Assembly: GCA_030612885.1 (NCBI GenBank)
Contig: JAUWMZ010000002.1
Span: 80,923 to 144,922, forward strand
Direction: 5' to 3'
Origin: Candidatus Nealsonbacteria bacterium
GTDB taxonomy: Bacteria > Patescibacteriota > Minisyncoccia > Minisyncoccales > JAGMDC01
Length of the DNA stretch: 64,000 nt
A model generated the notes under the pieces. The model searched no databases. It was not told the origin of the DNA and worked only from the letters and a program-made list of their open reading frames with translations. Positions 2,714 through 63,758 of the stretch are shown here, piece after piece (within the stretch, counting starts at the first letter, position 1; the number at the start of each line of letters is the position of its first letter). The position numbers were made by a program, and so were the translations under genes.

Positions 2714-2810
2714 ATTATTAGTGAATATTCGTTATTGAAATTAGAGATTGATTAGTGGTTTAGTGATTTAAATTAGTGAATTATTAGTGGTTAGGTTATC
2801 CACATTGACA
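2637..2810 (+). repeat. iteron-like array: (T/C)CACGAAT x4, TTAG(T/A)G(A/G) x6, then TTATCCACA-TTGACA
   Basis: CACGAAT copies at 2637, 2649, 2681, 2704. TTAGTG/TTAGAG copies at 2718, 2741, 2752, 2760, 2773, 2784. DnaA-box 9-mer at 2796-2804. Confidence 0.7.
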
Positions 2811-28582: not shown

Positions 28583-29851
28583 ATGAAAAAAGAAGATTTA
28601 ATCAAAAAATTAGAAACTATTAAAACTCCGGAAATTGAAATTCAGAGCCACAAACAAAGATTAAAAATGGCCCTGCTTAACTCTGGATATTTTAAGGAGA
28701 AAACTATTATGTTTTGGACAAAAAGATTAGTTCCAGTGGGAGTCGCTTTGGCTTTAATTTTAGTTTTGGGTATTTCAGTAATTCAACCGAAATTACAGAT
28801 AGCCAGAGCTATGGAAATCGCCAAGAACGACCCTCAAATTAAAGAGTTAATGGAAGAATACGGAGTAGAGATTAAAGAGATAAAATTGCAGGACGGCAAA
28901 GCTTATGTCTTACTTACTCTTCCTGAAGAAAAATTGCCCCCTGTACCTGGCTTAGAAAAAAGAGCTCTCTCTACAGAAGAAGAGGAAACTGGCATGCTTG
29001 GTATGCGCGGACCCGGGCAATTTTACATCGTCTACCACGACCCTGAAACAGGCGAAATAATAGAATCTTCTGGTTCGGTTGCTGAAATAGACCTTAAAGC
29101 AAAAAAAGTAGCAAAGCTTGAATTGATTGAAACACTACAGATTAATATCACTCCTTTAACCGAGGAAGAGAAAGTCAGAGCAATTGAAATTGCCAAAAGC
29201 GAGCCAAAGATTCAGGAGATGATTTCTGATTTAGAAGAGAGAGAAATAATTGTCAAGCCACTGCCTCCTCTCAAACTTCGCTTAGACGAAGATCCTGATG
29301 ACGGAATGGAAATTACTTCTGCCGACCCGAACGAAGACAAAAGAGCCAATGTGATTTTCAAATCCGATGAATATCAGGATACAATCACGGTTAATCTGAC
29401 CACGGGCAAAGTGGAAGGAGCGGTGTCATTCTCAACTGGCAGAATTGAAAGACCTCAATCCGAATATCCTATGCCAATTAAACCTTATCTCATTAAGCCC
29501 AAGTTTTATCTTGAGCCGGACAGAATAGAAACACTTTTACCTGATGAAGGAGTAATAATAAGCGAAGGTCAACTAAGCGGTCCCGGAAGCGCTACTGAAA
29601 AAGAAATGTTCGCGGCAATGCTAAAGGAAATTGGCGAGAAAGACGACAGAATCAAAGATTTATTAAAAGATAATGATTATGAGATTTTGGAGATTATCAG
29701 GTCAAAGCCAGTGATTACCAAGACCGAAACCAGCGAAACAATAAGAGTGGAAACAGTCACTATAGTTTTAGAAAAGGAAAGTACAGGAGAAGATTACTGG
29801 ATTACCATAGATTTGGGAAGTATGACGGTGGCATCAATAGAAAAGGAATGA
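28583..29851 (+). CDS. single-pass membrane protein with repeated PepSY-like modules (anti-sigma/sensor candidate)
   Basis: Cytoplasmic N-terminus, TM at ~aa 47-68. Repeats such as MEIAKNDPQIKELMEEYGVEIKEI and AIEIAKSEPKIQEMISDLEE. Sits behind an ECF promoter. Confidence 0.45.
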   Translation: MKKEDLIKKLETIKTPEIEIQSHKQRLKMALLNSGYFKEKTIMFWTKRLVPVGVALALILVLGISVIQPKLQIARAMEIAKNDPQIKELMEEYGVEIKEIKLQDGKAYVLLTLPEEKLPPVPGLEKRALSTEEEETGMLGMRGPGQFYIVYHDPETGEIIESSGSVAEIDLKAKKVAKLELIETLQINITPLTEEEKVRAIEIAKSEPKIQEMISDLEEREIIVKPLPPLKLRLDEDPDDGMEITSADPNEDKRANVIFKSDEYQDTITVNLTTGKVEGAVSFSTGRIERPQSEYPMPIKPYLIKPKFYLEPDRIETLLPDEGVIISEGQLSGPGSATEKEMFAAMLKEIGEKDDRIKDLLKDNDYEILEIIRSKPVITKTETSETIRVETVTIVLEKESTGEDYWITIDLGSMTVASIEKE

Positions 29852-30193
29852 ACAGAGGATCAAAGATGGATTAAAAAAACGCCAAAGTTTTGCAAAAACA
29901 GCCCGAATTGGGTTGTTTTTGGTTACTTTTTCCAATAAAAAAGTTTGCATTACGGAATGCAAGGTGGACGCAAACTTTTAAATTAAAAATCCCTCCGATT
30001 TTAGAGGATTTTTCAACCTTTTTTAACCCATTTTTGAACTGAAATTAGTGCGAGGGATCGAGCGATAGCGACCGACAAAGAAGGAATACAAATTAACAAA
30101 GCTATGTTAGAAAACCACACTGAAAGTGTATATAGTCGGGGGTAAGGATTGTCAGTTTTTCAGGTCTCTTTTCTTGGAGTTATGGATAAGATT

Positions 30194-30202
30194 TGGTAGA
30201 AT
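30194..30202 (+). promoter_or_regulatory. extended -10 TGGTAGAAT
   Basis: 52 nt upstream of ATG 30255. Confidence 0.45.
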
Positions 30203-30254
30203 GATAGAGAAAGTTTGAAGACGGTTAGCCCTTGAGCTAGATTAATTTAAATTT

Positions 30255-30842
30255 ATGGCAAACAAAGATTATCAAACTATAAATGAAAGACAAAGTTATG
30301 TCCAAAAAAGTGGCGAGGAATGGGAAAACAAAGTAATGAATTTTGTAAATAAAAAATTGAAAGATATTGAATCTGATTTATTTGTAATTAAGGGTAATTC
30401 TATTCAAAAAAACTCTCCCTTATGGAAGAAACTATCAATACCAGTAGGTAATCCTGGTTCAGAACAAAAAATTTGGGGAGATATTGATTTAGTCGCAATC
30501 GATGAAAACAAAAATCCTATCGCAGTAATAAGTTGTAAAACAAGTTTACATGGCAGATTTTCTGAAACACTTTTTTATGCAGTTGTTTTGAAAGAGTTGG
30601 TTGAAGAATTAAAAGTTGTATTTGCTACACCAGATAAAGGAAGACAGCAGAAAGGAAAGATTTGGCAATCTGAATGGGGGAGTGAAGATAAACCAACAAA
30701 AGACAGATTACTTGGTTCGCATTATCTTGATGGGGTTTATATTCTGAATAAAGATACAAAACTTGGTGGAATGATTAAATCATTGGACGACCTTCCAAAA
30801 GATTTAATAGAATGGCACAAGAAATCAAAATTAGTTAAATAA
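30255..30842 (+). CDS. PD-(D/E)XK-like nuclease, candidate restriction endonuclease
   Basis: GDIDLVAIDENKNPIAVISCKTSL resembles a D...(S/E)xK nuclease core. Convergent with the methyltransferase, 31 nt apart. Confidence 0.4.
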   Translation: MANKDYQTINERQSYVQKSGEEWENKVMNFVNKKLKDIESDLFVIKGNSIQKNSPLWKKLSIPVGNPGSEQKIWGDIDLVAIDENKNPIAVISCKTSLHGRFSETLFYAVVLKELVEELKVVFATPDKGRQQKGKIWQSEWGSEDKPTKDRLLGSHYLDGVYILNKDTKLGGMIKSLDDLPKDLIEWHKKSKLVK

Positions 30843-30873
30843 ATGAAATATTTTCTGGAAAAAACACTCTATT

Positions 30874-32304
30874 TTAGAGCGTTTTTTCTTTTCTATTAAT
30901 TATAAGTTTTTGTTGTTTTGATATAGTATTCACTCTCTCTTGGGCGGTTTTACAATATTGAGGAGATATATCTATATGAACAAAATGCCTTCCAGTTTTT
31001 ACAGCAACAGCGGCAACAGTTCCAGTTCCACCAAACATATCTAAAACATTATTATTTTTGTAAGAATAAAATTTAATTAATCGATAAATCAATTCTTCAG
31101 GAAAAGGAGCAGGGTGACCTTTTCTTCGTCTTTCTGGTTGAATACGCCACATACCATCAGAGAATTTCATAAATTCGTCTTTAGTAATATCTGCTTTTTT
31201 ATAACTACCATCTAATTTATCTTTATCTTTTGAAAAAATTAGGACATATTCCCAAGAAGGAACAATATGAGGATTAGACGGGCTTTTGAAACTTCCCCAG
31301 GCTGTTCTTTTGAGCATTGTTTGTTTATACCAAATAATTTCTGTTCTGAATTTCATTCCTAATTTTCTAAATTGATTTGTAAAATCATGATGTAAAGGAA
31401 CGAAATCTTTTATCCCTGTCGGAGCAATATTCAAAGCAAATCTTCCACCAGGTACAAGCACTCTTTTTGTCTCTTGCCATACTTTTTCTAACCAATCTAA
31501 ATATTCTTGATATTTCATTTTGTCAAAATGATTATCATAATCCTTGCCAACATTATAAGGCGGGGAAGTAATTGCTAAGTCAATAGAATTATTTGGAATT
31601 TCGGCCATTTTTTCTAATACATCACCACAAATTATTTTATCAAATTCAAATTTTTTAATTGCTTTTTGTTTAACAACCCTAAAAGTTTTGGCGCCTATTT
31701 TTAATTCTTTAAAGGTTCTAATAACGCTAATAACTTTTCCCTGAATAACTATCTCTTTTGTAAAAATTGGTCTAAGAGTTGGATTTGCTGGTTGCAGGCG
31801 AAATCCGTTTTTTTCTCTGTAAATTTTCTTTAGAGTCACTTCATTGTCATTTATTAAGGCAACCACTGTTTCTCCGTTTTCTGCTGTTGGTTGTTTTCTT
31901 ATAACTACAGTGTCGCCGTCAAAAATCCCTTCATCAATCATACTATCGCCCTGTACTCGTAAGGCATAATGTTCACCTGATTTAGATATTTGAGATTTAG
32001 GAATTTTAATTGTTTCTCTATCTTCTATTGCTTCAATTGGTTCGCCAGCAGCAATGGTCCCAAGTAGAGGAATACGTATTAAATCTGAATGTTTCTTTTG
32101 ATGGCTTAATTCAATCGACCTCGGCTGATTTTCTATTTTTTCTAAATATTCCTTTCCTCTTAGCGCTTCTATATGTTGATGAATAGTTGATACCGAAGAC
32201 AATCGAAAATGTCTCTTTATTTCTTCTAAAGAGGGGGCATAGTCATTTTCTTTAATACACTTAGTAATATAATCCAATATTTGTTTTTGTCTTTTCGTAA
32301 GCAT
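30874..32304 (-). CDS. LexA (wHTH + S24 peptidase) fused to a SPPY-type amino-DNA methyltransferase
   Basis: Start at MLTKRQKQILDYI (ATG rc 32302-32304). LexA hallmarks: LLGTIAAGEP (Ala-Gly site), VQGDSM (Ser), VTLKK (Lys), GKVISVIRTF end. Then the MTase with DLAITSPPYN (motif IV) and VLDMFGGTGTVA (motif I). Confidence 0.8.
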   Translation of the reverse strand: MLTKRQKQILDYITKCIKENDYAPSLEEIKRHFRLSSVSTIHQHIEALRGKEYLEKIENQPRSIELSHQKKHSDLIRIPLLGTIAAGEPIEAIEDRETIKIPKSQISKSGEHYALRVQGDSMIDEGIFDGDTVVIRKQPTAENGETVVALINDNEVTLKKIYREKNGFRLQPANPTLRPIFTKEIVIQGKVISVIRTFKELKIGAKTFRVVKQKAIKKFEFDKIICGDVLEKMAEIPNNSIDLAITSPPYNVGKDYDNHFDKMKYQEYLDWLEKVWQETKRVLVPGGRFALNIAPTGIKDFVPLHHDFTNQFRKLGMKFRTEIIWYKQTMLKRTAWGSFKSPSNPHIVPSWEYVLIFSKDKDKLDGSYKKADITKDEFMKFSDGMWRIQPERRRKGHPAPFPEELIYRLIKFYSYKNNNVLDMFGGTGTVAAVAVKTGRHFVHIDISPQYCKTAQERVNTISKQQKLIINRKEKTL

Positions 32305-32312
32305 ATTTTTAT

Positions 32313-32350
32313 TTGACACTATTTTTACCTTTGCTATAATTATTATAGCA
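32313..32350. promoter_or_regulatory. TTGACA-N16-TATAAT promoter (+) overlapping the 19-nt palindrome TGCTATAAT-T-ATTATAGCA
   Basis: TTGACA at 32313-32318 and TATAAT at 32335-32340. The palindrome at 32332-32350 gives a TGCTATAAT extended -10 on both strands. Confidence 0.65.
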
Positions 32351-32428
32351 TACCGAAAAAGAACCGAAAACACTGTCAACCTGTGGATAACTTTTAAAAG
32401 TCGAAAATTTAATTGAGAAATAAAATTT

Positions 32429-33559
32429 ATGGAAAATGGTGATTTTTTACTAAGAAACGAATATGAGATGTGTGAGTTTTTTGAAGATATTTTGTTTATG
32501 AAAACAGAAAAGTTTTCACCAGAACTGAGACACGAATTAGAGGAACGAAAACTTAGATTAAACAACGAAGATATAGCTCTTTTAGACAAGACAGGCGTTC
32601 TGAATCGCATTTTTAGAAGGTGGCTTCAAACTACTTGGCTCTATGAAGGAGATTCTAAACATTTTAAAGGAGAAACTCCGCGTCAGGAATTAGCAAATCT
32701 TTATCCTGATTTAGAAAATGGCTGGGATTTTATGTCGGTGAAATTAAGAAAGAAAAATGAAGAATGGAATGTTGCTCCATGCTATTTTTCCAAGAAATGG
32801 CTGGAAGAAGAAAGAAACATATTTGAATTCGGATTAAAGAATTTGAAAGATGAAAAAAATGAGTTTGTGGAACCACAGTTAGATTGCGAATTTAAAACTT
32901 TTATTGCTTGGCTTTTGCGTACAGAAAAAGTTGCTAAAAAAATCAATCCCAAAATGGAACATAAGAACGATTTTATTAAATACTTAATGTTATTTTTTGA
33001 AACAGCTTCTGCTAACATAGTGCTAAATTGTAAGACAAATTTAACTAAAGAAAAATTCGGAAAAGCAAGCTTTGAACTAAGGAAATATCTATTTTGGCTT
33101 TTTGAAAACCAACCTCGTGGCAAAGATAATTATTGGGACATTGATGATGTATTTTTTAATTGCTGGAATATTTTAAGAAAGGCAGATAAAAATCTTGTTT
33201 CATACAAAGATGCGGTAGATATTGGTGATAGAGTTCAAAGAATAGAAAGAGACAAACTATTACAAAAATCGGCGGAGGTATTGTATAGACTCGGAGTATC
33301 CTTTGATAGATATTTTCTTTTTCCTTTGGATAGATATTTTGGAGGGATGGAGATTGTTTGGACAGATACGCAAGCATTTTTAAATGAATTAGCAATAACA
33401 ATAAATCTTTTAAAAAATAATTTAAGCATAGAACGTAATTTGGAAGCTGAAAAAAAATTTTTAGACATTGGCGATATTACATACGATATTAGATATATCT
33501 GGTTTGCTCCTTCAACCTCTTTTCGTTTTTTAGGATCAATTTATCGATATTTCGATTAA
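32429..33559 (+). CDS. hypothetical 376-aa protein, divergent from the LexA-MTase gene
   Basis: Long clean ORF with no motif I can recognise. Confidence 0.6.
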   Translation: MENGDFLLRNEYEMCEFFEDILFMKTEKFSPELRHELEERKLRLNNEDIALLDKTGVLNRIFRRWLQTTWLYEGDSKHFKGETPRQELANLYPDLENGWDFMSVKLRKKNEEWNVAPCYFSKKWLEEERNIFEFGLKNLKDEKNEFVEPQLDCEFKTFIAWLLRTEKVAKKINPKMEHKNDFIKYLMLFFETASANIVLNCKTNLTKEKFGKASFELRKYLFWLFENQPRGKDNYWDIDDVFFNCWNILRKADKNLVSYKDAVDIGDRVQRIERDKLLQKSAEVLYRLGVSFDRYFLFPLDRYFGGMEIVWTDTQAFLNELAITINLLKNNLSIERNLEAEKKFLDIGDITYDIRYIWFAPSTSFRFLGSIYRYFD

Positions 33560-33580
33560 AATTTACTTTACAAGATACAC

Positions 33581-33617
33581 TAACGGCCGTCTCTCATTTT
33601 TGTAGTTTTAAGAGATT
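33581..33617 (+). repeat. 37-nt repeat TAACGGCCGTCTCTCATTTTTGTAGTTTTAAGAGATT (copy 1 of 2)
   Basis: 32/37 identical to 40128-40164. Both are preceded by ACTTTAC and follow the stop of a plus-strand ORF. Confidence 0.8.
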
Positions 33618-33712
33618 AGCAAAAAACGAAATCTAACGGTTTCGCTTTTTTGTTTTCAAAAGATTGATAAAAAGTTAAAAATGGGTTAAATTAAAAATAG
33701 AAAGTAAGGAAA

Positions 33713-33736
33713 AAAAATGGGGTCAACTCTATTTTT
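33713..33736 (+). repeat. 24-nt repeat AAAAATGGGGTCAACTCTATTTTT (copy 1 of 3)
   Basis: Other copies at 37336-37359 and 39487-39510. Partial AAAAATGGGT(T/A) at 33677 and 37326, and the rc AACCCATTTTT at 30025. Confidence 0.85.
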
Positions 33737-33817
33737 GATTTCAGAAACGGGTTTTTCAACCTGTTTTTTCTTTGTTAAATTGGTATAATACAGTAAAGAA
33801 TAAAATTTTTAGATGAT

Positions 33818-34063
33818 ATGAGTAAAAAGCAAAAAGTATTAACTGAAATTTATAGAATTTGCCAAAAACAAAATGATTTTGTTTTTGACAATGATTTAGT
33901 AAAAAGAATTGCCAATTAAACAAATCTCAACTTGTTATATTTTACGAAAGAAAATTGATAATAAGTCAATTTTGCGTTTGTATAATTATACTTTTGAAAA
34001 TGTAAATAATATAGCTTCAATCAAATTACTTAAATCTGCTCAATATTATTTAATTAAAAAATA
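33818..34063 (+). pseudogene. possible frameshifted small ORF upstream of the second methyltransferase
   Basis: A 33-aa ORF (MSKKQKVLTEIYRICQKQNDFVFDNDLVKRIAN*) ends at 33919. The +1 frame then stays open from 33918 to 34063. Confidence 0.3.
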
Positions 34064-34070
34064 AAAAAAT

Positions 34071-34910
34071 ATGAATAAATTTTCTTTTAATAATGTTTAT
34101 AATACAGATGTGATGGAAGTTTTGAAAGGATTGCCAGATAAAAGTATTGATATGGTTTATGGTGATCCGGACTATAATGTTGGTATAAAATATAATGATA
34201 AATCTTATACAAAAAATTTTAATGAATATATTGAATGGTATACAGAATTAGCAGAAGAATCATTAAGAGTTTTGAAGGATGACGGCAATTTATTTTTTAT
34301 TAACTATCCAAAACAGAATGCCTATTTAAGAGTTAAATGCTTAGACGAGGTTTGTTATAAAGTGTCGGATTATGTGTGGGTCTATAATACTAATGTTGGA
34401 CATAGCTCAAAACGATTTACTACCGCCCACAGAAGTATTCTGCATTGTCAAAAGACAAAAGATAATAAATTTTGCAAAAAAAATGTAGCTGTTCCATATC
34501 AAAATCCAACAGATAAGAGAATTTTAAAAAACATCGCCAACGGTTCTAAGGGGAGGATGCCTTATGATTGGTTTTATTTTGATTTAGTAAAAAATGTGTC
34601 AAAAGATAAAACATTTCATCCTTGTCAGATACCAAAAGGCTTAGTGGAGATGTTAATCAAGGCGAGTACCAAGGAAAACGATAGAATATTTATTTTATTC
34701 GGTGGTTCGGGAAATGAAATTTTACTTTGTAAAGAATTAAAGAGACAGTTTATTTCTGCTGAGATTGACAAAAAATATTATAATATGATTCTTGATAGAT
34801 TAAGTAATGGCGGTATTATCAGGAAAGATTATAAGTTGCAAGGAATAAATCGCAATAAGGTAGAATTTTCTTACGCTCAAAAAGAATTGTTTTTTGTTAA
34901 ATCAGTATAA
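34071..34910 (+). CDS. beta-class amino-DNA methyltransferase with variant motif IV (DPDY)
   Basis: DMVYGDPDYNVG where (D/S/N)PPY is expected. FHPCQIPKGLVEMLI and ILFGGSGNE (motif I). Confidence 0.7.
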   Translation: MNKFSFNNVYNTDVMEVLKGLPDKSIDMVYGDPDYNVGIKYNDKSYTKNFNEYIEWYTELAEESLRVLKDDGNLFFINYPKQNAYLRVKCLDEVCYKVSDYVWVYNTNVGHSSKRFTTAHRSILHCQKTKDNKFCKKNVAVPYQNPTDKRILKNIANGSKGRMPYDWFYFDLVKNVSKDKTFHPCQIPKGLVEMLIKASTKENDRIFILFGGSGNEILLCKELKRQFISAEIDKKYYNMILDRLSNGGIIRKDYKLQGINRNKVEFSYAQKELFFVKSV

Positions 34911-42294: not shown

Positions 42295-43404
42295 TCAGCT
42301 TCTTCTTTGTTGTTTTTCAATTCTTTTTATTGCTTCTCTAATGCCAATTTCTACTTTTCTTTCTTCTACTTCAGCGATAAAATTCTTGCCTGAAAAAAAT
42401 TCCACTTGGAGAGTGATGTCAAAAAGAATAATTCCCCCAGCCGGCTTTTTTGATTTTTTGAAATTTATTTTTATCTGCTGAACAGGGGACATTTTATCTA
42501 ACTTTTCCCCCAGTCGCTCAAGTAAAGTATATATTTTTCCCATTTCATAATCAGTGGTTTTTTTAGTCGGCTTTCTGAAAATAATGGGAATTTCTTTTTT
42601 CGGTTTGAATTCTGCCATAGCTTTTAAAATCGTGCGATTGGAAATTATTCCATAAGGGAGATTATTTTTATCTACTATAACAATGCTATTTTTTCCTGCC
42701 CTGAACATTCTTTGAAGAATTTTTTCAATTCCTAATTCTTTTTTAGCGGTTAGAACATTTCTGGTATAAAATTTTGATATAGCAATATCAAATCTGTTCG
42801 CTCTTTCCTGGTCAAGGGAATAATTTATCGGTTCTCCTCTTCTGGTAGACGCTTTCTGTTTTTTAGTCGGTTTTATAAATGCGTTCTCAATATCTTTTCT
42901 TGTTATAATACCAGCTAATTTTTTATTATTATCAACTAAAACAACACGTGTAGTTCCTTTTTCACGGAGCAGTTTATAAACATCTTTTACAGTTGAATTT
43001 ATTTTAGCTGTTGTGGTTTTTTCTATTTTTATTTTTTGCGCTATCTGGCTGAAAATATCCGGTTTTTTCGATAACTCCTTTATTATATTTTTAGCTCTTA
43101 CAATTTCTTTGATTTCATTCTTATCATTAAATACTGGCAGGGCGTAAATTCTGGTGGCGACCATAAAATCAGCAATTTCATAAAAGGGAGTTGAGTTGTT
43201 TATGCGAGGCGGAATAATAATCACAGACTTAACTTTAGTTGTATAAGGCAATCTTTTTTTGAATAGGACATAGTATGGCGAGACCAATCCAAGAAATTCA
43301 TCATTGTCATTAAAAACAAAAACCGGCTCATGACTGCTTTGTATCACAGATAAAGCTGAACCAAGAGTTGTTTCAGGGAAGCATCGAGCAATAGTGTTGT
43401 TCAT
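42295..43404 (-). CDS. four-CBS-motif protein with a C-terminal HPF/RaiA-like domain
   Basis: Four CBS-like repeats (e.g. VVLVDNNKKLAGIITRKDI, IVIVDKNNLPYGIISNRTI). The last ~95 aa follow a beta-alpha-beta-beta-beta-alpha pattern ending IREAIKRIEKQQRR. Confidence 0.6.
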   Translation of the reverse strand: MNNTIARCFPETTLGSALSVIQSSHEPVFVFNDNDEFLGLVSPYYVLFKKRLPYTTKVKSVIIIPPRINNSTPFYEIADFMVATRIYALPVFNDKNEIKEIVRAKNIIKELSKKPDIFSQIAQKIKIEKTTTAKINSTVKDVYKLLREKGTTRVVLVDNNKKLAGIITRKDIENAFIKPTKKQKASTRRGEPINYSLDQERANRFDIAISKFYTRNVLTAKKELGIEKILQRMFRAGKNSIVIVDKNNLPYGIISNRTILKAMAEFKPKKEIPIIFRKPTKKTTDYEMGKIYTLLERLGEKLDKMSPVQQIKINFKKSKKPAGGIILFDITLQVEFFSGKNFIAEVEERKVEIGIREAIKRIEKQQRRS

Positions 43405-63508: not shown

Positions 63509-63758
63509 AACGAGTAAAAAAAATCAAATTATGAGGAAATTACTTTCATTTCCTCTTTTTTTATTTTTTTTAACAAGGCAAAAATTCTCTAAAAAGTTAT
63601 CCACAGGTGATTTTTCCTTATTTCTGTTATAATATAATAATTTTGAGACCTAAAACCTGCGTGAGAGTGTTTTAAAATTAAATTCTCAAAGCAAGTTTAG
63701 GTAAAGGTCGAATTAAGAATTTATAGAAATATAAATATTAATAAAACTAAAAAATAAT

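Follow-up and report, generated by a model that had tools for sequence, protein, structure and literature searches.

A LexA repressor fused in frame to a restriction-modification methyltransferase in Candidatus Nealsonbacteria and other Patescibacteria

We describe lexA-M, a minus-strand gene in 64,000 nucleotides of DNA from Candidatus Nealsonbacteria bacterium (contig JAUWMZ010000002.1, positions 80,923 to 144,922; this whole stretch is called the window below). Its 476-aa product carries a LexA repressor, apparently complete and cleavage-competent judging by its motifs, fused in frame to an intact beta-class amino-methyltransferase (MTase, M). With the convergent gene of a restriction endonuclease (REase, R) the fused MTase reads as a genuine Type II restriction-modification (R-M) cassette. 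Sequence comparisons indicate that the fused form is the dominant form of LexA in Patescibacteria (candidate phyla radiation, CPR) and occurs there with many MTase classes. We lean towards the view that this LexA-methyltransferase is autorepressed and damage-inducible and thereby limits self-restriction. More tentatively, we suggest that the SOS repressor and an R-M MTase form an obligate bifunctional protein in Patescibacteria, with damage feeding back on methylation and cassettes of any class plugged in at the linker, which would mean a superphylum-wide rewiring of the SOS response.

The minus-strand frame of lexA-M is open upstream as far as 32610. The start is fixed at the ATG at 32304 by the conserved N-terminus MLTKRQKQ, by promoter elements just upstream and by the starts of the homologues, all of which begin with MLTK. 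The initial annotation of this DNA had read one open reading frame (ORF) encoding a complete LexA and an MTase, naming Ala-Gly, Ser, Lys, LexA-end and SPPY motifs, and had proposed searches with three Pfam models. All three match, LexA_DNA_bind (PF01726) at residues 2–62, Peptidase_S24 (PF00717) at residues 79–192 and N6_N4_Mtase (PF01555) at residues 241–456 (model positions 1–221 of 221), and every motif is where it had been placed (Table 1). The LexA half also matches the NCBIfam lexA equivalog TIGR00498 over residues 2–198 (model 4–202 of 203) with 200 bits, well above the cut-off of 111. Its motifs are LLGTIAAGEP with Ala86-Gly87, GDSM with Ser121 (31942–31944, minus strand), TLKK with Lys159 (31828–31830, minus strand) and the IRTF end at residue 198. 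The catalytic Ser and Lys are each kept in 71 of 71 related LexA modules, and in alignment A2 I84 and G87 are invariant and A86 almost so. The top PDB match of this half is T. maritima LexA (3k2z, 3.7e-37). By every sequence-level criterion it is a LexA.

In the MTase half motif IV, SPPY (residues 247–250, 31555–31566), precedes motif I, FGGTG (residues 424–428, 31021–31035). The order is thus motif IV, target recognition domain, motif I, as in beta-class N4-cytosine MTases. PADLOC assigns the domain to MTase_II (2.7e-78), and its PDB matches are 2zie and the N4-cytosine MTases 8s9n and 8s9m. The enzyme probably modifies N4-cytosine (m4C-type). From an alignment of 72 sequences AlphaFold2 predicts three modules with confidence, at a predicted template modelling score (pTM) of 0.51. 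Together with the low-confidence region at residues 197–217, this score fits independently mobile domains on a flexible tether.

Table 1. Features of the lexA-M locus, in window coordinates (pLDDT, predicted local distance difference test; HTH, helix-turn-helix)
Feature	Position	Strand	Evidence
Type II restriction endonuclease, 195 aa, BsaWI family	30255..30842	+	Pfam RE_BsaWI 7.5e-13, 48.9 bits against a cut-off of 26.2
lexA-M gene	30874..32304	-	476-aa LexA-methyltransferase fusion; one ORF with three Pfam domains; stop codon 30874-30876
Beta-class DNA methyltransferase domain, residues 221-476	30877..31644	-	N6_N4_Mtase 7e-47, full length
Flexible Lys-rich linker, residues 199-220 (~22 aa)	31645..31710	-	AlphaFold2 pLDDT <50 for residues 197-217
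S24 peptidase/dimerisation domain, residues 79-198	31711..32070	-	Peptidase_S24 4e-31
Ala86-Gly87, predicted self-cleavage site (GTIAA/GEP)	32044..32049	-	Ala-Gly in 70/70 readable LexA modules
LexA winged HTH (wHTH), residues 1-66	32107..32304	-	LexA_DNA_bind 3e-17; AlphaFold2 pLDDT ~85; predicted recognition helix SVSTIHQHIEALR
Divergent promoter TTGACA-16-TATAAT with TG	32313..32340	+	12/12 consensus, aimed at ORF 32429-33559
Extended -10 box TGCTATAAT of the lexA-M promoter	32342..32350	-	Forms half of the palindrome 32332-32350 (19 bp)
Predicted LexA operator (SOS box) TTTCGGT-tctt-TTTCGGT	32352..32369	-	Direct repeat TTTC-N7-TTTC, period 11 bp
TTATCCACA element	32382..32390	-	Exact DnaA-box consensus; lies shortly upstream of the lexA-M promoter
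376-aa hypothetical ORF	32429..33559	+	Behind the consensus promoter that overlaps the SOS box

Faulty assembly does not account for the fusion. The same 476-aa protein with the same neighbours was assembled independently in ERZ4220366, SRR12623518 and ERZ4219663. The best 120 homologues from a collection of 5.8 billion proteins all have the three Pfam domains in one frame, at lengths of 445–500 aa and identities of 64–83%; SPPY is kept in 120 of them, motif I in 119 and the S24 motifs in nearly all. In-frame fusions of this identity range run to hundreds and come from Patescibacteria of many samples and pipelines. Hence, the missed stop or frameshift that the initial annotation had wanted to exclude is excluded, and the reading of lexA-M as an assembly or annotation artefact, chimeric contig included, has next to no chance and is effectively refuted already.

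A scan of GTDB, limited to a single genome for each species, gave 521 relatives; we kept the best 80 and took the complete ORF at each locus with a LexA match. Among the 67 ORFs so obtained, 64 continue into a C-terminal extension of 250–625 aa and three are plain LexAs of ~200 aa, a ratio of ~20:1 in this sample. The extensions form nine sequence clusters, each of them a DNA methyltransferase, and belong to at least five structural classes. They comprise several beta-class N6_N4 subfamilies (one with only a partial, possibly permuted match), gamma-class N6_Mtase/Eco57I, TaqI-like and M.Eco57I-like enzymes, Dam-like D12 and C-5 cytosine methylases. The LexA half was also searched alone against 1.84 billion cluster representatives, which removes the bias of the MTase half. 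The nearest representatives (~52% identity and up) are mostly 279–890 aa long with LexA at residues 1–200, and ordinary LexAs of ~200 aa predominate only below ~50% identity. Partners recognisable in the 63 nearest representatives are N6_N4 (27), Eco57I/N6_Mtase (7), D12 (5) and C-5 (3) enzymes, and no enzyme class other than MTases appears as a partner among these 63. The hosts of the best homologues are Levy-, Shapiro-, Azam-, Zambryski-, Roizmanbacteria and other Patescibacteria; where the source names the homologues, they are mostly labelled 'repressor LexA'. No record in the phage and plasmid collections covers 80% or more of the fusion. The survey of architecture and neighbourhood that the initial annotation had called for thus returned hundreds of fusions, usually with an adjoining REase gene. 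Its expectation of novelty holds in that the searchable literature gave no description; the implied rarity does not, since the fusion dominates the LexAs of Patescibacteria.

The REase gene converges on lexA-M with a gap of 31 nt. What the initial annotation had seen as a PD-(D/E)XK-like ORF in an R-M-like cluster is borne out by the RE_BsaWI match and by the presence of the same M+R pair in archaea. DPANN archaea carry this pair unfused, with M 74–81% and a convergent 194-aa R 78% identical to those of the window (loci L020/L021). We considered that the window's REase might be truncated (195 aa against 270–290 aa in relatives) and rejected this, since the enzyme paired with the unfused MTase in archaea has 194 aa and is 78% identical. 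A PDB sequence search with the window's REase gave no match. More widely, the cassette is shared with the DPANN loci L020, L021, L023 and L025–L030 at ~75–81% identity for M and 55–78% for R. This sharing indicates that the cassette was recently transferred across the domain boundary, both groups being ultra-small organisms. The cassette thus moves across domains, and its fusion to LexA is specific to Patescibacteria.

A nuclease gene abuts the fusion in most loci, usually convergently and with a gap of -4 to +35 bp, and the REase family tracks the MTase class across ~60 loci. Window-type MTases go with BsaWI-like or HNH nucleases, the MTase cluster with the partial, possibly permuted N6_N4 match with MvaI/BcnI, another N6_N4 group with EndoVII/His-Me and the C-5 MTases with Bsp6I or PD-(D/E)XK nucleases. 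MjaI, AccI, AlwI and MutH-like nucleases accompany other MTase groups. An XRE-type controller (C) gene lies immediately upstream of R in ~17 of 52 related cassettes; there is none upstream of 30255 in the window. These genes of ~70–75 aa (…QSYVSKIESGQRRFDVLQLKEFAKLYKKSLDFFVK), which were assigned by sequence pattern, end 4–10 nt before the REase start (L015, L016, L018, L032, L048, L051, L052, L070, L071, L074, L076, L078, L082, L083, L089). Cassettes with a C gene would combine C-protein control of R with LexA on M.

Some loci are more elaborate. At L047 (5998–8587) a 653-aa triple fusion joins LexA, an N6_N4 methyltransferase and a staphylococcal-nuclease-like domain, and an MjaI-family endonuclease gene comes after it. 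L054 (2943–7500) has two complete LexA-methyltransferase genes ~1.2 kb apart, with the convergent REase gene of the first between them. Upstream of lexA-M in L004/L005 (1–7815) and L010 (1812–7400) there are genes for ThsB-TIR, Mrr-NTPase, DpnI, Zeta toxin and Panacea/SocA, as well as GmrSD, SIR2 and another MTase. The lexA locus seems, from these gene contents, to lie in a defence island or to seed one.

The two halves of the protein meet at a linker that the initial annotation had put at ~24 aa. The linker is real, because unfused archaeal MTase homologues begin at the equivalent of residue ~212–219 and the AlphaFold2 confidence drops at residues 197–217; its length by our boundaries is a little shorter (Table 1). 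Linker identity is 9–41% in every comparison, against 65–88% in both flanks. The junction was also inspected for an internal start that could give a free MTase. No ATG, GTG or TTG codon stands in frame between residue 199 and Met231, which itself already lies within the conserved MTase N-terminus.

The linker is also the place of exchange. The nearest LexA halves (73–79% identical to that of the window) carry four MTase types, and the nearest MTase halves (76–88%) sit on LexAs that are only 33–59% identical in the wHTH. In segment-by-segment comparison the switch of relatedness falls exactly in residues 199–220; therefore, LexA and R-M cassettes have been swapped as modules. We also considered that the C-terminal domain of LexA might travel with the MTase. 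The breakpoint inside lexA that this predicts is not seen, the switch being at the linker. A neighbour-joining tree of the LexA domain mixes MTase classes and has the window-type MTase at at least six scattered positions, which, in a tree unreconciled with organismal phylogeny, are not a count of independent events.

The likely operator of lexA-M is the direct repeat just upstream of its -10 box. It is the sole exact copy in the 64 kb, where looser matches number 11 against 8.5 expected by chance. The upstream regions of ~60 species share a layout, in which the TGTGGATAA / TTATCCACA element is followed by a tandem repeat of 11-bp period beside the -10 box and often by 'GTCAA' close to the start codon. 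Scored as found at 7 or more of 8 matching positions, the repeat is present in ~50 of 66 upstream regions, and TATAAT directly after it is conserved in orthologues. The repeat unit co-varies with the predicted recognition helix (helix 3). Helices with …STIHQHI… go with TTTCGGT, …STVNHYM… with TTCTAG, …STAHFHV / AHYYV… with TTTCTAT, K-ST[IV]HQH… with GTTCGG and …LATVHKH… with TTTCGCT; with …STAHHHV… the unit is TCGAAA, inverted and downstream of the -10 box. With up to two mismatches allowed, the locus' own operator recurs neither before R nor anywhere else in the flanks searched (0.49 Mb), and it occurs once per locus.

The initial annotation had pointed to the palindrome 32332–32350 as the LexA target. 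The palindrome exists, reading TGCTATAAT on both strands, and is better understood as two extended -10 boxes (TGnTATAAT) back to back. We rejected it as the best operator candidate because its plus-strand half belongs to the 12/12 divergent promoter, the only one in the scanned region 29800–34200, and because it is the direct repeat that co-varies with the helix. The repeat would cover the -35/spacer region of the lexA-M promoter. The divergent transcript would begin near 32347 and run over the SOS box, which would lie at about +5 to +22 of it.

Further upstream lies the TTATCCACA element. In 851 kb, 10.6 exact TTATCCACA boxes are expected and 68 occur, 45 of which are within 150 bp upstream of lexA. 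Before REase genes there is no such enrichment (4 of 52 with one mismatch allowed). The element is invariant upstream of lexA (L004–L091) while LexA helices and operators vary, and hence a different conserved protein, possibly DnaA, probably binds it. It may add an input of replication status to lexA-M promoters. The window has two other copies, at 2796–2804 (+) and 63597–63605 (+), and each adjoins promoter-like -35/-10 elements; one is upstream of secA, the other after 63508.

A scan of metagenomic contigs for the window-type box gave 81 sites. Fourteen lie 21–118 nt upstream of lexA, and those with a complete ORF comprise five fused and three plain LexAs. Most of the remaining sites look like chance matches in compositionally unrelated contigs, and two related contigs were the sole informative loci of the scan. 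In one (L128) a Y-family polymerase gene (IMS 3.9e-36, plus IMS_C) has the box 255 nt upstream, between -35-like and -10-like elements. In the other (L140) a plain LexA with a window-type box heads a lexA-uvrB-uvrA cluster. The box is thus a probable SOS box, and since the fused proteins are predicted to use the same box as these canonical SOS genes, the fused LexA most probably remains the SOS repressor.

The architecture, the intact motifs, the R-M partnership, the exchange of modules at the linker and the co-variation of operator and helix are seen in the sequences. On these grounds we suggest the following mechanism for the control of lexA-M; that the protein binds DNA and is cleaved with the help of RecA, what becomes of the cleaved fragment and whether it is active, and what the cell gains are inferred.

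Step 1: A dimer formed through the S24 domains would bind the direct-repeat box over its own promoter and thereby keep the LexA-MTase at a set level. The operator-bound dimer would also block the divergent promoter.

Step 2: DNA damage, including breaks that the cell's own endonuclease makes where methylation falls behind, would produce filaments of RecA on single-stranded DNA. The filaments would stimulate self-cleavage at Ala86-Gly87, with the wHTH, ending in IAA, set free and the S24-linker-MTase fragment left. The initial annotation had envisaged an SOS-triggered switch of a restriction or toxin module; cleavage would part the wHTH from the S24-MTase fragment, not LexA from the MTase.

Step 3: The promoter would be derepressed, and MTase output would rise just as repair and replication restart yield unmethylated DNA. 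More MTase, not less, is the most economical outcome of the cleavage. The feedback is plausible because SOS is known to be induced in E. coli when Type II R-M activity is unbalanced (review PMC3874152).

Several points weigh against this mechanism. An operon alone would give a damage-inducible MTase, and the in-frame fusion is thus left unexplained. R is co-directional and probably co-transcribed in ~10 of 60 loci, where it would rise with M. Two loci (L081, 6001–7380; L086, 6001–7386) have a plain LexA of ~196 aa followed 18–24 nt downstream on the same strand by DpnI (Pfam DpnI 2e-77 for the L081 representative, with L086 grouped by sequence similarity). DpnI is a methyl-dependent endonuclease and needs no methyltransferase. 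Both loci look like lexA-dpnI operons without an MTase, and they show an association of LexA with restriction systems generally, not with MTases alone. There are no further SOS boxes in the 64 kb of this genome beyond the one at lexA-M's own promoter. The two copies at L054 differ in helix and operator (STAHHHIKKLQ with TTTTCTA-N4-TTTTCTA, STVHEHIETLR with TTTCGGT-N4-TTTCGGT), and some co-resident copies may be insulated private controllers. The avoidance of palindromes gives no clue to the recognition site: CCGG occurs 148 times in the window against 50 expected by base composition, an over-representation of ~3-fold instead of avoidance. Binding, cleavage and methylation, finally, are deduced from sequence.

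Other readings of the fusion have to be weighed. The LexA module might be a private controller of the R-M system, an autoregulator like a C protein or the SsoII N-terminus, with RecA responsiveness irrelevant or vestigial and no global SOS role. The single operator per locus, co-resident paralogues with orthogonal helix/operator pairs and the known N-terminal HTH domains that autoregulate MTases (SsoII, EcoRII; references in PMC3874152) all agree with it. However, the Ala-Gly, Ser and Lys are invariant in 70–71 of 71 modules, which implies selection for cleavage. The same box stands at the Y-family polymerase promoter and before the plain lexA-uvrB-uvrA cluster, the fused proteins score as lexA equivalogs, and the 64-kb window has no second LexA. 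We thus hold a merely private role to be unlikely.

Rather unlikely, too, is an SOS-triggered suicide or abortive infection. After Ala-Gly cleavage of E. coli LexA both fragments are degraded by ClpXP or Lon. If cleavage exposed degrons and the S24-MTase fragment shared this fate, methylation would fall, the stable REase would cut new host and phage DNA, and DNA damage or phage infection would kill the cell. The invariant cleavage apparatus would then be a post-translational switch beyond what an operon provides and would explain the fusion. No LexA box stands before the convergent R gene itself, and in relatives the neighbouring genes frequently serve defence (ThsB-TIR, Mrr, GmrSD, SIR2, Zeta toxin). 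However, derepression of the same promoter would at once remake the full-length MTase-bearing protein, and co-transcribed R would make M and R rise together. LexA is cleaved under mild routine damage, so lethality would be very costly, and instability of the fragment finds no support in this analysis. Quite improbable in our view is a largely neutral fusion, in which R-M cassettes find an insertion hot-spot or a defence-island anchor at the 3' end of lexA, and stop codon and spacer were repeatedly lost in very compact genomes. It would account for exchange exactly at a linker of unconserved sequence, for plain LexAs followed by DpnI or another nuclease, where the locus draws restriction genes unfused, and for the variable, defence-gene-rich surroundings. 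Against it stand in-frame joins to at least nine sequence-distinct MTase groups of at least five structural classes, with M always fused and never R or another enzyme. Both halves are strongly conserved (64–83% identity across lineages), and fused LexAs outnumber plain ones ~20:1 in our sample.

The protein resembles several known systems in part. It shares with canonical LexA (E. coli, B. subtilis, T. maritima 3k2z) the wHTH, Ala-Gly and Ser/Lys of residues 1–198 and a predicted autoregulatory box, but adds a C-terminal MTase of ~280 aa on a flexible linker, so that cleavage would leave an S24-MTase fragment, not a bare S24 domain. The alphaproteobacterial LexA box is the direct repeat GTTC-N7-GTTC (PMC8565304) and has the same geometry, a tetranucleotide at 11-bp period, as TTTC-N7-TTTC in the window; literal GTTC-N7-GTTC occurs in L042, L044 and L061. 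However, these loci and the window belong to another phylum, and their sites are predicted, with a unit of ~7 nt that diversifies with the recognition helix. UmuDAb, HdiR and the non-canonical LexA of Bacteroidetes are S24 damage regulators of non-standard architecture (PMC8565304). They vary in the N-terminal DNA-binding domain, and none has a C-terminal enzyme domain.

Among regulatory counterparts the nearest is the SsoII/EcoRII-type MTase with its N-terminal HTH. The SsoII/Ecl18kI/EcoRII/MspI-type MTases likewise carry a DNA-binding domain N-terminally on an R-M MTase, and the HTH of the SsoII type represses its own promoter and so sets the level of M (references in PMC3874152). However, these are C-5 MTases with a short HTH and have no S24 protease, self-cleavage or link to RecA/SOS, whereas the window protein joins N6_N4_Mtase to a ~198-aa LexA with S24, and the LexA module is combined with at least five structural classes of MTase. 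It is thus partly like the SsoII type and not a member of it. C-protein systems also have dedicated transcriptional control of the cassette, and about a third of the related cassettes have a C gene. C proteins differ from the LexA on M in being small and free-standing and in acting mainly on R, and the window cassette has no C gene. Type I restriction alleviation after DNA damage, where ClpXP degrades HsdR (PMC11109961, PMC4231737), answers the same problem of unmethylated host DNA in damage, repair and recombination. This likeness would be functional only: there the restriction subunit is proteolysed, and here we propose LexA-driven, damage-inducible synthesis of a Type II MTase.

In the searchable full-text literature we found no description of the fusion; a paper on the SOS network of Patescibacteria (Sánchez-Osuna, Barbé & Erill 2017, Environ Microbiol 19:3465) lies outside this scope and may mention it. 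Neither the 2013 review of R-M regulation nor the 2026 preprint on CPR methyltransferases mentions it. The architecture is apparently common in sequence databases and uncharacterised. The label 'repressor LexA' hides an R-M methyltransferase, and surveys of CPR MTases would overlook the LexA half.

In an R-M system restriction must not get ahead of methylation; where it does, the resulting DNA breaks trigger SOS. In lexA-M and its relatives the damage sensor/repressor and the protective MTase are in one polypeptide, repeatedly, with every MTase class and across a radiation that holds a large share of bacterial diversity. An obligate bifunctional protein of SOS repressor and MTase, if it is one, would add a new way of controlling R-M systems to those by C proteins, HTH-MTases and antisense RNA. 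The damage-inducible circuit, if true, would be a simple feedback design against autoimmunity, would show how tiny, regulator-poor genomes control mobile defence cassettes, and would provide a natural plug-in site for exchange of cassettes, also with DPANN archaea.

The other neighbours of lexA-M have a looser tie to it. The 376-aa ORF has no Pfam, NCBIfam or convincing PADLOC match; its family has 71 clusters, all from Patescibacteria and without a Pfam domain, and its homologues stand in unrelated contexts. We rejected it as a missing REase or module part on the same grounds and because it was not found in other lexA loci; the divergent ORF of the initial annotation is thus not a conserved partner of lexA-M. 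The second MTase placed in the cluster by that annotation (34071–34910, plus strand) is a beta-class Type II enzyme (PADLOC MTase_II 3e-123), 22% identical to the fused MTase. Among the contexts examined it adjoins lexA-M only in this genome's own assemblies. It has no recognisable endonuclease gene beside it, and a 33-aa ORF and ~500 bp of non-coding DNA lie upstream.

Several palindromes are depleted in the window: GATC (52 against 159 expected), CTAG (28 against 106) and TGCA (72 against 165), which suggests GATC- and TGCA-specific restriction pressure, past or present. Coding-strand bias is extreme. With ORFs counted from 110 aa upwards, the credible genes are essentially all on the plus strand, and the only clear minus-strand genes are lexA-M and a CBS-domain gene at 42295–43404.

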